The position numbers and the translations under genes were made by a program. Below the pieces are notes generated by a model. The model ran no database searches. It had not been told where the DNA came from and saw nothing but the letters and a program-made list of their open reading frames with translations. From Candidatus Latescibacterota bacterium (GTDB lineage Bacteria; Latescibacterota; UBA2968; GCA-2709665), in contig CAXXXF010000015.1 in assembly GCA_963667175.2 (NCBI GenBank), positions 384,001 to 448,000 of the forward strand: DNA of 64,000 nt. The letters are read 5' to 3'. Shown one piece after another: positions 62,391 through 64,000 of the stretch. Within the stretch, counting starts at the first letter, position 1. Each line of letters opens with the position of its first letter.

Positions 62391-62433
62391 GAATAAAAAG
62401 ACGGGACAACGCGCCTTATGAGTGCATTGTCCC
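62391..62433 (-). terminator. Intrinsic terminator closing the cassette array
   Basis: Minus strand CGGGACAATGCAC-TCATAAG-GCGCGTTGTCCCG followed by TCTTTTTATT. Confidence 0.65.
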
Positions 62434-62473
62434 GATATGTCTTTTGCGGTAAAGGGTATTTCGGGGATGAGAG

Positions 62474-62848
62474 TCAGTCCTGCTCCTGATCCAACACGCG
62501 ACCGAACGCCTCGACGCCGGATACCCGCACCGCCGCGCGGTGCAACTGTTTCAGACGCTGTACGTCGTCGATTTCCGCAACGCGAACCGTCAGTGGATGC
62601 GACCCAGGCAGATTGAATCGAACCTCCAGGACCGCGAGGATGCTGTCCCGAAGCCCCTGCTCGATCCCCTGTTCAATCCCTTGCTCGATCCCCTGTTCGA
62701 TCCCCTGCTCAATCCCTCGCTCGATCCCTTGCTCGATCCCCTGTTCAATCCCTTGCTCGATCCCTCGCTCAATCCCCTGTTCGATCCCCTGCTCTTTGGC
62801 TTCACGCGTGAGATATCGGGCAAAGGACGATTCGCGGATGAGATCCAT
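62474..62848 (-). CDS. Stand-alone Rpn/YhgA-like C-terminal domain protein, 11 GIE(Q/R) repeats
   Basis: AAGGAGG RBS. MDLIRESSFARYL-(GIEQ)n-LEVRF...I.D...L..L...A.....E.F architecture is typical of Rpn/DUF4351-like C-termini. Confidence 0.75.
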   Translation of the reverse strand: MDLIRESSFARYLTREAKEQGIEQGIERGIEQGIEQGIEQGIERGIEQGIEQGIEQGIEQGIEQGLRDSILAVLEVRFNLPGSHPLTVRVAEIDDVQRLKQLHRAAVRVSGVEAFGRVLDQEQD

Positions 62849-62881
62849 GATGCCCTCCTTGTGGTAAGGCGCCGTGTAGAC

Positions 62882-62909
62882 AAGATACCGGATCAGGACC
62901 GAATGTCAA
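62882..62909 (-). promoter_or_regulatory. sigma70-like promoter repeated upstream of each complete cassette ORF
   Basis: TTGACA-16 bp-TATCTT here; TTGACT variants at about 63327-63354 and 63760-63787. Confidence 0.5.
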
Positions 62910-62990
62910 TGAACGAGACGGGACAACGCGCCTTATGAGTGCATTGTCCCGATATGTCTTTTGCGGTAAAGGGTATTTCGGGGATGAGAG

Positions 62991-63293
62991 TCAGTCCTGC
63001 TCCTGATCCAACACGCGACCGAACGCCTCGACGCCGGATACCCGCACCGCCGCGCGATGCAACTGTTTCAGACGCTGTACGTCGTCGATTTCCGCAACGC
63101 GAGCCGTCAGTGGATGCGACCCAGATAGATTGAATCGAACCTCCAGGACCGCGAGGATGCTGTCCCGAAGACCCTGCTCGATCCCCTGTTCAATCCCTCG
63201 CTCGATCCCCTGCTCGATCCCCTGTTCGATCCCCTGCTCTTTGGCTTCACGCGTGAGATATCGGGCAAAGGACGATTCGCGGATGAGATCCAT
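62991..63293 (-). CDS. Stand-alone Rpn-like C-terminal domain protein, 5 repeats
   Basis: Paralog of 62474-62848 with the same RBS. Confidence 0.75.
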   Translation of the reverse strand: MDLIRESSFARYLTREAKEQGIEQGIEQGIERGIEQGIEQGLRDSILAVLEVRFNLSGSHPLTARVAEIDDVQRLKQLHRAAVRVSGVEAFGRVLDQEQD

Positions 63294-63435
63294 GATGCCC
63301 TCCTTGTGGTAAGGCGCCGTGTAGACAAGATACCGGATCAGGACCGAAAGTCAATGAACGAGACGGGACAACGCGCCTTATGAGTGCATTGTCCCGATAT
63401 GTCTTTTGCGGTAAAGGGTATTTCGGGGATGAGAG

Positions 63436-63726
63436 TCAGTCCTGCTCCTGATCCAACACCCGACCGAACGCCTCGACGCCGGATACCCGCACCGCCGCGC
63501 GGTGCAACTGTTTCAGACGCTGTACGTCGTCGATTCCCGCAACGCGAGCCGTCAGTGGATGCGACCCAGGCAGATTGAATCGAACCTCCAGGACCGCGAG
63601 GATGCTGTCCCGAAGACCCTGCTCAATCCCTTGCTCGATCCCCTGTTCGATCCCCTGTTCGATCCCCTGCTCTTTGGCTTCACGCGTGAGATATCGGGCA
63701 AAGGACGATTCGCGGATGAGATCCAT
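63436..63726 (-). CDS. Stand-alone Rpn-like C-terminal domain protein, 4 repeats
   Basis: Paralog with the same RBS. Confidence 0.75.
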   Translation of the reverse strand: MDLIRESSFARYLTREAKEQGIEQGIEQGIEQGIEQGLRDSILAVLEVRFNLPGSHPLTARVAGIDDVQRLKQLHRAAVRVSGVEAFGRVLDQEQD

Positions 63727-63868
63727 GATGCCCTCCTTGTGGAAAGGCGCCGTGTAGACAAGATACCGGATCAGGACCGAAAGTCAATGAACGAGACGGG
63801 ACAACGCGCCTTATGAGTGCATTGTCCCGATATGTCTTTTGCGGTAAAGGGTATTTCGAGAATGGGAG

Positions 63869-64000
63869 TCAGTCCTGCTCCTGATCCAACACGCGACCGA
63901 ACGCCTCGACGCCGGATACCCGCACCGCCGCGCGGTGCAACTCCTTCAGACGCTGTACGTCGTCGATTTCCGCAACGCGAACCGTCAGTGGATGCGACCC
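63869..64000 (-). CDS. Fourth Rpn-like C-terminal domain copy (partial; 5' end beyond the window)
   Basis: Same C-terminus ...GSHPLTVRVAEIDDVQRLKELHRAAVRVSGVEAFGRVLDQEQD, stop at 63869-63871. Confidence 0.7.
   Translation of the reverse strand, partial: GSHPLTVRVAEIDDVQRLKELHRAAVRVSGVEAFGRVLDQEQD

Follow-up and report, generated by a model that had tools for sequence, protein, structure and literature searches.

A probable nested antitoxin freed from its toxin gene and amplified in tandem at a divergent Rpn-type locus of Candidatus Latescibacterota

How does a protein that is encoded inside the gene for another protein become a gene in its own right? This question is raised by a tandem array of short genes that starts near the end of a stretch of DNA from a Candidatus Latescibacterota bacterium (genome G000, assembly GCA_963667175.2). 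The stretch comprises 64,000 nucleotides (nt), namely, positions 384,001 to 448,000 of contig CAXXXF010000015.1, here denoted C15; this whole stretch (C15:384001-448000) is hereinafter called the window, and because the contig continues past it, features further on are located in the overlapping segment L009 (C15:446001-460000). In the Rpn nucleases of Escherichia coli, as described in the main text of Zhong et al. 2023 (PNAS, PMC10400941), the small protein RpnS is translated from an internal start of the nuclease gene and blocks the full-length product, RpnL. The array analyzed here is, in our opinion, probably an Rpn-type toxin-antitoxin locus whose nested antitoxin became free on one occasion and was later multiplied; the resulting cassettes would act as stand-alone RpnS-like proteins.

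Within the window, from position 62391 to 64000, the DNA consists of head-to-tail repeats with a period of 433-517 base pairs (bp) and with the minus strand as the coding strand; for positions 62730-64000, the period given by Tandem Repeats Finder is 445 bp, with 2.9 copies, 96% matches and 12-bp sub-repeats within each array unit. The whole array comprises seven units in 4.6 kilobases (kb; C15:446395-450971, it starts at window position 62395 and extends 2,971 nt beyond the window). Read along the minus strand, as they would be transcribed, these units, S7, L6, L5, S4, S3, S2 and S1, are 421, 1147, 1123, 493, 433, 445 and 515 nt long and encode proteins of 92, 329, 321, 116, 96, 100 and 124 amino acids (aa), respectively, so that L6 and L5 are full length and the other five units are short. 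The preliminary description of the window had rightly recognized tandem mini-genes with intact open reading frames (ORFs) of 96-124 aa, of which those of 124, 100 and 96 aa are complete and the fourth leaves the window, and had suggested that the contig be extended rightwards to look for a full-length rpn gene; two such genes, L5 and L6, lie inside the array. The signals that it had listed for each cassette, namely, a TTGAC(A/T)-N16-TATCTT promoter-like motif, an AAGGAGG ribosome-binding site and a hairpin, are indeed found in each unit, and, as it also stated, a U-tract follows the last hairpin only, the S1 hairpin being the single one among the unit hairpins that passes the T-tract test.

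A consensus scan of the full array identifies seven promoter-like sites on the minus strand, one at the start of each unit (eight sites in total compared to 2.1 +/- 1.5 in shuffled sequences), and every unit contains AAGGAGG 5 nt before an ATG and a 31-nt hairpin after the stop codon. All seven units have in common the promoter-like site and the initial ~20 nt of the 5' untranslated region (5'UTR), up to ...GGCGCCTTACCA, after which the full-length units continue TTCTCCCAGAGTTCCCCGGGCATCCTGC-ATG and start without a Shine-Dalgarno sequence. At the outer ends, S7 retains the upstream flank GATGCAA-TTGAC, which is also present in single-copy homologues from other genomes, and S1 retains a T-rich tail 3' of its hairpin. 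The basic module consists of a promoter, a 5'UTR lacking a Shine-Dalgarno sequence, a gene of ~320 aa and a terminator hairpin. The same module is conserved in the closest sub-clade (L050-L066), with 14 of 80 loci matching by pattern: it includes TTGACT-N17-TATCTT located ~76 nt upstream of the start, a conserved 5'UTR that ends in ...GGGCATCCTGC-ATG, and the downstream hairpin GGACAAYGCAC...GTGYGTTGTCC followed by a T-rich tail.

The origin of the short genes can be read from their 5' ends. The short ORFs correspond to the C-terminal part of the long proteins and start at the internal methionine within ...ILKEGI-MDLIRESS..., in agreement with the earlier proposal that they represent the C-terminal part of an Rpn protein translated from an internal start. 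All five short units share the junction ...TTACCA-C-AAGGAGG, reading C-AAGGAGGGCATC-ATG after the 5'UTR, whereas the two full-length units have ...TTACCA-TTCTCCC...ATG at the 5' end and ...ATTTTG-AAGGAGGGCATCATG internally; the counterpart of the short-unit start within the long genes is ...ATTTTG-AAGGAGGGCATC-ATG. The junction is shared because the amplification followed a single deletion, which took out the DNA that separates the 5'UTR from the internal ribosome site: this one event fused the two and made the nested gene free-standing, with a promoter-like site of its own. The suggestion that a freed cassette had been amplified is thereby borne out, with five copies that carry the same junction. 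Another part of the preliminary description has to be revised: the in-frame upstream sequence 'LIRYLVYTAPYH', taken there for a decayed coding remnant, is actually the translated -10 box and 5'UTR, as found before the full-length genes, and only its 'KEGI' derives from coding sequence. Unequal recombination between modules would then have produced five short copies around two intact toxin genes. The locus shows, at the resolution of a single junction, how a gene within a gene turns free, through the joining of the toxin's promoter to the internal ribosome site.

Is the internal start used in the intact genes as well? The full-length genes contain AAGGAGG-N5-ATG in frame at Met214, and this methionine is at least 90% conserved among 50 homologues. 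We further compared 80 loci from other genomes (56-78% protein identity), of which 72 were usable and eight lacked the motif or the frame by pattern. In the 72 usable loci, the internal Shine-Dalgarno sequence is AAGGAGG in 61 cases, GGAGG in ten and AGGAG in one, whereas a 5-mer Shine-Dalgarno sequence precedes the full-length start in none of the 72. The codon choice is equally strict: the lysine codon at position -4 is AAG in 62 of 62 cases, compared to 180 AAG and 177 AAA elsewhere in the same genes, and the glutamate codon at position -3 is GAG in 72 of 72, compared to 949 GAG and 1020 GAA elsewhere. The genomes behind these loci are related, so the counts are not independent; nevertheless, the conservation is telling because free synonymous sites would be expected to vary at such divergence. 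Thus, an in-frame internal start that would give the C-terminal domain, a hallmark of RpnS, is found here at the sequence level, and the internal start proposed in the preliminary description is backed by a ribosome-binding site that is conserved through synonymous codons in all usable homologues. These comparisons are good evidence that an internal translation start is conserved, with an RpnS-like product that would be made in excess over the long form; by analogy with E. coli, a strong ribosome site on the short form and none on the long form would ensure the excess of antitoxin. By the same token, the conservation of synonymous sites argues strongly for ancient and widespread nested antitoxin translation in this family.

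The nature of the full-length proteins is less obvious from routine searches. L5 and L6 are both intact; they differ in 10 of the 213 N-terminal codons, with six of these differences synonymous, and the catalytic motif is kept in both. When an alignment of 39 diverse homologues (A2) was compared, using hhalign, to an alignment of E. coli RpnA, RpnB, RpnC and RpnE (A3), the nuclease cores were matched over 98 columns with a probability of 93% and E 3.3e-7, which supports the kinship with Rpn claimed in the preliminary description; RpnA alone as the template gave a probability of 20% and E 0.0011, and no signal was obtained for a low-diversity alignment (A1) against RpnA, so that the diverse one was needed. 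The hhalign alignment pairs D5, D48, E65, Q67 and R79 with RpnA D11, D63, E82, Q84 and R94; D48 and E65 are invariant and the other three residues are at least 90% conserved among the homologues. Mutation of each of these RpnA residues has been reported to abolish or alter the activity of RpnA (Kingston et al. 2017, PMC5350276). The AlphaFold2 model of the full-length protein (mean predicted local distance difference test, pLDDT, 74; predicted template modelling score 0.61) is compatible with this assignment. Over the first ~135 residues, VIA-align matched it to PD-(D/E)XK nucleases, best to NucS (2vld; Z 6.6, root-mean-square deviation 3.4, 104 residues aligned), then to Can2 (8bao; 6.1), McrC (6hz4; 5.7), FokI (5.1) and Hjc (4.8), all below the advised Z of 8, and the best relevant Foldseek match was XisH (2inb; E 0.066, probability 0.99).

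More direct links come from relatives. A tblastn search of plasmids retrieved 17 cyanobacterial records that align with residues 4-231 at 25-30% identity and with E down to 3e-11; the 10 listed matches are annotated as 'Rpn family recombination-promoting nuclease/putative transposase', 'DUF4351 domain-containing protein' or, in one case, 'hypothetical protein'. Two of the 39 distant homologues pass the DUF4351 gathering score of 25 over the last ~55 residues (P0345, 29.6 bits; P0378, 26.3 bits), whereas one touches PDDEXK_2 and one Transposase_31, both below threshold; the nearest named Atlas clusters carry DUF4351 and DUF2887. The family is large: of 7999 candidates scored, 2337 are near-length relatives (E <= 0.001), and 3818 representative clusters are matched at the same threshold. 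Among the relatives, the few that are named are metagenome-assembled genomes (MAGs) labelled Gemmatimonadota or Latescibacterota, with one protein called 'Rpn family...' and three 'predicted transposase YdaD'. None of 50 close homologues matches TIGR01784, PF04754 or PF12784 at E <= 0.1, none of 151 genomes sampled from the phylum encodes a canonical TIGR01784 protein above the cut-off, and a tblastn search of a phage collection yielded no match. We therefore treat the family as a divergent branch of the Rpn superfamily rather than as a member by curated model. It resembles the cyanobacterial Rpn/DUF4351 proteins, for example, those of Nostoc plasmids, by direct tblastn similarity, and differs from them in failing the Pfam and NCBIfam thresholds and in occurring mainly in Latescibacterota and Gemmatimonadota MAGs. 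A large, uncharted branch of Rpn toxin-antitoxins, missed by the Pfam and NCBIfam models, would thus be added. Separately, matches to Yae1_N (Pfam), FliH (NCBIfam) and the PADLOC 'putative invertase' PDLC01084 (E 1e-5 to 2e-3) all fell on the repeat tract discussed below; the first two were rejected, and the third was discounted, as compositional.

Stand-alone copies of the nested gene are not confined to this array. At E <= 0.001, the cassette is matched by a total of 1108 short proteins (55-175 aa), and 83 of the 120 listed short relatives start at the internal methionine (73 by pattern and 10, beginning with 'MDAI...', read by eye). A further copy lies within 6 kb at 10 of 80 fetched loci. 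L079 contains two tandem short genes, L107 and L119 have a short gene just downstream of a long one, and in L115, from another genome, three full-length members with roughly 2, 9 and 1 repeats are arranged in tandem within 4.2 kb. The stand-alone short genes of other genomes display at least four other 5' junctions, with the Shine-Dalgarno sequence and the ATG kept in all of them: in L144/L051, ~11 upstream codons are retained; in L145, the family -35 region is combined with unrelated sequence; in L146 and P0198, the first ~20-30 N-terminal codons are fused to KEG-M; and in L148, unrelated DNA directly abuts the Shine-Dalgarno sequence. The existence of several different junctions across genomes implies that loss of the nuclease with retention of the nested gene happened repeatedly. 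One short copy (L147, genome G009) is frameshifted. Among the 21 other genomes of the family-level group that were examined, the gene family is present in 13 of the 14 that belong to the same genus, and none of the 21, as read from the match rows, contains at least three adjacent C-terminal-only copies. In the genome analyzed here, contig C18 (C18:51299-52956) carries two Rpn-like C-terminal fragments, an 81-aa stand-alone short gene with one repeat and a 143-aa truncated piece, and between them lies a 91-aa ORF that resembles a RelE/ParE-type toxin.

The most variable part of the proteins is a tract of tetrapeptide repeats that starts at residue 19-20 of the short protein. The (Q/R)G(I/T)E units number 3, 9, 7, 9, 4, 5 and 11 in S7, L6, L5, S4, S3, S2 and S1, respectively; elsewhere in the genome, the full-length paralogues on contigs C16 and C2 have five and two repeats and the stand-alone short gene on C18 has one. 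The homologues also vary in repeat number, and so do adjacent copies in other genomes (4 vs 6 in L051, 4 vs 5 in L056, 1 vs 2 in L066). The main text of Zhong et al. (PMC10400941) describes 4-residue repeats in RpnS, composed of one hydrophobic residue and charged residues or glycine, that start 8-20 residues after the methionine; variable 4-residue repeats of this type are found here, with glutamine being polar rather than charged. Slippage of the 12-bp tract gave the copies differing helix lengths. In E. coli, according to the same source, one added repeat in RpnC-S abolished neutralization unless RpnC-L had it too. If this rule holds, only S4 could serve a neighbouring toxin, L6, whereas S2 could serve the C16 paralogue, which also has five repeats and whose post-repeat domain differs at 14 of 61 residues. 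The mostly unmatched repeat numbers, combined with the E. coli rule, argue against a simple dosage bank, which the preliminary description had put forward as one possible role of the cassettes, the other being a reservoir of swappable C-termini. The array is a natural matrix for this rule, with toxins of 7 and 9 repeats and antitoxins of 3, 4, 5, 9 and 11.

Leaving the repeat tract aside, the seven units have 95.0-98.4% identity over 322 nt, with an uneven distribution of the differences: no unit departs from the others in the 57 nt from the ATG to the tract, whereas 2-14 sites differ in the 186 nt that follow it. This contrast might be due to gene conversion with its anchor upstream of the tract. 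The variable sites after the tract include nine synonymous and nine non-synonymous ones for all seven units (P 0.025 vs neutrality) and six of each for the five short units (binomial P 0.065), counts in which the sites are not independent of each other.

What can be said of the short protein itself? In the model of the 100-aa cassette protein (pLDDT 73), a long helix (residues 26-53) is followed by three short helices; RpnA-S (7TH0), for comparison, is a dimeric three-helix bundle in which the first helix is long. A Foldseek search with this model gave no match at E <= 0.001, and a wide VIA-align search returned only generic helical bundles, the best being a designed helical protein (Z 7.1); 7TH0, the structure of RpnA-S, is absent among the listed fold matches, which does not by itself exclude a likeness. 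In the comparison of the cassette profile (A4) with the E. coli Rpn alignment, hhalign produced a meaningless 20-column match only. The hits of the searches against solved structures were set aside: a single cassette protein matched only a low-complexity rhoptry protein, and the best match of the cassette profile (E 1) was an unrelated helicase, RpnA-S (7TH0) not being returned. Modelling of a complex between the full-length protein (A1) and the cassette protein (A4), run on our own alignments, gave a score of 0.42, compared to 0.01 for the best of three controls, which counts as weak support; the mark is reached by 58 of 80 solved complexes and two of 110 mismatched pairs, and at scores of <=0.60 by only seven of the 80 along with both mismatches. 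At least 93% of the contacts recur between runs, with a partner pLDDT of at least 79. The predicted complex slightly shifts the odds toward pairing between the full-length and short forms and is not in itself evidence of binding in the cell. In two proteins of 159-165 aa from other genomes (P0135 and P0149), two RpnS-like domains are fused head to tail, each with (M/T)DLIRESS.

According to the interpretation that we favour, the full-length protein would contain an N-terminal PD-(D/E)XK nuclease domain like that of RpnA, and the internal site would yield a C-terminal protein of ~100 aa, the presumable counterpart of the intragenic antitoxin RpnS. By analogy with E. coli, the short proteins may use their long helix, which bears the repeats, to pair with the corresponding region of the full-length nuclease and so keep it inactive. 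Several observations count against this interpretation. The array proteins did not reach curated thresholds in Pfam and NCBIfam scans: TIGR01784 scored 11.4-12.8 bits against a cut-off of 52.1, on the repeat tract only, and PF12784 (PDDEXK_2), PF04754 (Transposase_31) and PF14261 (DUF4351), the three models with which the preliminary description had proposed to search, gave no match at E <= 1. Neither sequence nor fold comparisons detected a resemblance between the C-terminal domain and RpnA-S (7TH0), so that the equivalence of this domain to RpnS rests on position, repeats, the internal start and the two DUF4351-scoring relatives. Only S4, with its nine repeats, matches a neighbouring toxin (L6) in repeat number, and none of the full-length genes in the genome has as many repeats as S1 (11), S3 (4) or S7 (3). 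The substitution counts are suggestive of purifying selection on the cassettes, for which the support is weak. No recognized defence island was found among the neighbours of the array, apart from a PemK/MazF-like toxin. Finally, no public-run contig spans more than one unit junction, and the copy number and order of the units rest on one assembly.

This last point bears on whether the array, or its copy number, could be an artefact of assembly, with one or two real copies over-expanded or mis-joined. Units that are 95-98% identical are hard to assemble, and public runs gave only short contigs, the Logan contigs over the array measuring 32-433 nt, with one of 2,502 nt over the left flank. However, every unit is individually recognizable, being distinct by its repeat number and by 5-16 substitutions per 322 nt, the array is located inside a contig of 905,912 bp without N, and contigs from other runs bridge the cassette-specific junction (X6 record 25, L009 781-990, with one difference; X1 record 8, L009 4893-4957, with none), even if X1 is possibly the source sample and then not independent. 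Contigs from two further runs labelled 'sponge metagenome' (X2 and X3) cover parts of the array and the left flank at 95-100% identity, with strain-level differences. An artefact accordingly appears very improbable. Hardly more credible is the notion that the short proteins are not antitoxins but DNA-binding autoregulators of the conserved promoter, or dominant-negative or assembly subunits. The promoter and the 5'UTR are conserved in the closest sub-clade (the 14 of 80 loci mentioned above), the fold searches returned generic helical bundles only, and Zhong et al. mention, in their main text (PMC10400941), HHpred relatedness of RpnS to helix-turn-helix motifs; yet many antitoxins are also repressors, so that a regulatory role would be compatible with the antitoxin interpretation, and the predicted contact with the full-length protein, though weak, is above the controls.

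A more serious contender, albeit one that we still consider unlikely, is that the short genes are a by-product without a selected role, that is, remnants of toxin loss that were passively multiplied by unequal crossing-over in a repeat-rich locus while their repeats drifted by slippage. As the antitoxin is nested at the 3' end of the toxin gene, a 5' deletion is the only way to drop a harmful toxin yet keep the immunity. With a divergence of only 1.6-5% between units, intact ORFs are expected even without selection, the signal of which is weak; the repeat numbers (3, 4, 5, 9, 11) look unconstrained and are mostly without a matching toxin; and truncated, frameshifted and fragmentary family copies are common (C18 and C4 here, many partial matches in relatives, L147 in G009). 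On the other side stand the promoter-like site, Shine-Dalgarno sequence, ATG, ORF and hairpin, kept in all five cassettes, the at least five independent deletions in different genomes that preserve the Shine-Dalgarno sequence and the ATG, the precise start at the internal methionine in the 83 of 120 listed short relatives, and the report, in the main text of Zhong et al. (PMC10400941), that E. coli RpnE-Ss (ypaA), the same kind of remnant, is produced as a protein. Conceivably, the variation in length is itself the point: the cassettes could be a bank of C-terminal modules that either serve as recombination donors, resetting the repeat number or the C-terminus of L5 and L6, or provide cross-immunity against RpnL of other lengths, whether from paralogues or from incoming elements, a proposal that we find improbable. 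Seven units with six different repeat numbers, the variation among adjacent copies in other genomes and the many paralogues held by genomes of the group are compatible with it; so are the 57 nt before the tract, identical as opposed to the variable 186 nt after it, as expected for exchange anchored upstream, and the suggestion in the main text of Zhong et al. (PMC10400941) that RpnL may itself drive such recombination and so produce small downstream homologues. No recombinant or switching event was observed, though; a nested antitoxin invariably changes along with the toxin that contains it, so that no bank is required to buffer slippage; and two of the six stand-alone copies (the five cassettes and that on C18) match any full-length repeat number, which by our estimate is about chance. 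In its most specific form, a doubtful one in our view, the repertoire of 3, 4, 5, 9 and 11 repeats would be length-coded and made up of independently transcribed modules, with exchange via the conserved 57 nt resetting the helix and C-terminus of both nucleases, or would confer standing cross-immunity to Rpn toxins whatever their length. If true, this would amount to cassette switching for a defence toxin, with a logic comparable to that of antigenic variation from silent cassettes.

Orphan antitoxins of type II systems, or anti-addiction modules, survive the loss of the toxin and can neutralize related toxins. Here, unlike in those systems, the antitoxin is nested in the toxin gene, so that an orphan arises by a 5' deletion that must preserve the internal ribosome site. 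The closest known parallels to an amplified nested antitoxin are in E. coli, where, as the main text of Zhong et al. (PMC10400941) reports, RpnS also exists as a separate gene (ypaA/RpnE-Ss and RpnC-Ss). The RpnE/ypaA and RpnC/RpnC-Ss pairs described there share with the present locus a PD-(D/E)XK toxin with an in-frame internal start for the C-terminal domain, a separate small-gene copy beside the full-length gene and variable 4-residue repeats early in the small protein, and differ from it in the C-terminal domain, for which there is no similarity at the level of hidden Markov models (HMMs). In K-12, ypaA is an annotated pseudogene located 13 nt downstream of rpnE and present in one copy; here, there are five copies, each with a toxin-derived promoter-like site, that flank two toxin genes. 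According to the same main text, rpn arrays arise by tandem direct duplication, and the 4-residue repeats vary and set specificity. The published arrays resemble the one described here in the head-to-tail duplication of whole rpn regions without target-site duplications; as far as that main text shows, they consist of rpn genes, whereas five of the seven units here are antitoxin-only. Stand-alone RpnS genes, rpn arrays and repeat variation are, therefore, already known from Zhong et al. 2023, and the locus is an extreme variant. What is new is a matter of degree and detail: the divergent, uncharted branch, the clean fusion of the promoter to the internal start, the five-fold amplified antitoxin-only form around two toxins, with six repeat lengths in one array, and the family-wide synonymous conservation of the internal ribosome site. 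A full-text literature search, with subscription journals outside its scope, did not turn up any further paper that deals with arrays of stand-alone RpnS or DUF4351.

The part of the array within the window (62391-64000, all features on the minus strand) contains S1, S2 and S3 in full and the 3' part of S4. The S1 hairpin (62403-62433) with its T-rich tail resembles an intrinsic terminator (62398-62433; T-tract site 62398-62417, L009 417-398). The S1 stand-alone RpnS-like ORF (62474-62848; 124 aa, 11 GIEQ-type repeats) includes the tract of 12-bp, 4-residue repeats (62654-62794; 11.8 copies) and is preceded by the Shine-Dalgarno sequence AAGGAGG (62854-62860), 5 nt 5' of the ATG and the same as the internal site of the full-length genes, and by the promoter-like TTGACA-N16-TATCTT (62882-62909). 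The hairpin that ends S2 (62920-62950) is without a T-tract, and the S1 -35 box lies 9 nt further on. The S2 stand-alone RpnS-like ORF (62991-63293; 100 aa, five repeats) is followed, in ascending coordinates, by its Shine-Dalgarno sequence (63299-63305), 5'UTR and promoter-like TTGACT-N16-TATCTT (63327-63354), together spanning 63299-63354. S3 is arranged in the same manner, with the terminal hairpin at 63365-63395, the stand-alone RpnS-like ORF at 63436-63726 (96 aa, four repeats), and the Shine-Dalgarno sequence (63732-63738), 5'UTR and promoter-like TTGACT-N16-TATCTT (63760-63787) within 63732-63787. The hairpin that ends S4 is at 63798-63828, and the 3' part of the S4 gene occupies 63869-64000; the full ORF, of 116 aa with nine repeats, extends to L009 2219, 219 nt beyond the window. 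In addition, a GC-rich hairpin followed by T6, terminator-like in the consensus scan, lies inside the nuclease-coding part of both L5 and L6, at approximately residues 90-97 (L009 3046-3060 and 4193-4219, minus strand); these hairpins could reduce the full-length transcript.

On one side, the array is flanked by genes for a TPR membrane protein, a family-2 glycosyltransferase and a methyltransferase and, on the other side, by genes for Hsp20, a PemK/MazF-like toxin with a small upstream ORF, an SHMT-like enzyme and a BNR protein. In genome G007, a single full-length copy of the family and a homologue of the TPR gene (54% identity) are arranged tail-to-tail; given that paralogues of the TPR gene exist, orthology is uncertain, and this synteny was not relied upon. 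The PemK/MazF-like toxin gene (PF02452, E 4.4e-13; L009 6250-6839, minus strand, C15:452250-452839) is located 1.3 kb beyond the array and is overlapped by an upstream 87-aa ORF without a Pfam match, with which it probably forms a type II toxin-antitoxin pair. In the AT-rich spacer between the array and the Hsp20 gene (L009 5146-5171), the 8-bp unit ATTATGTC is repeated 3.2 times.

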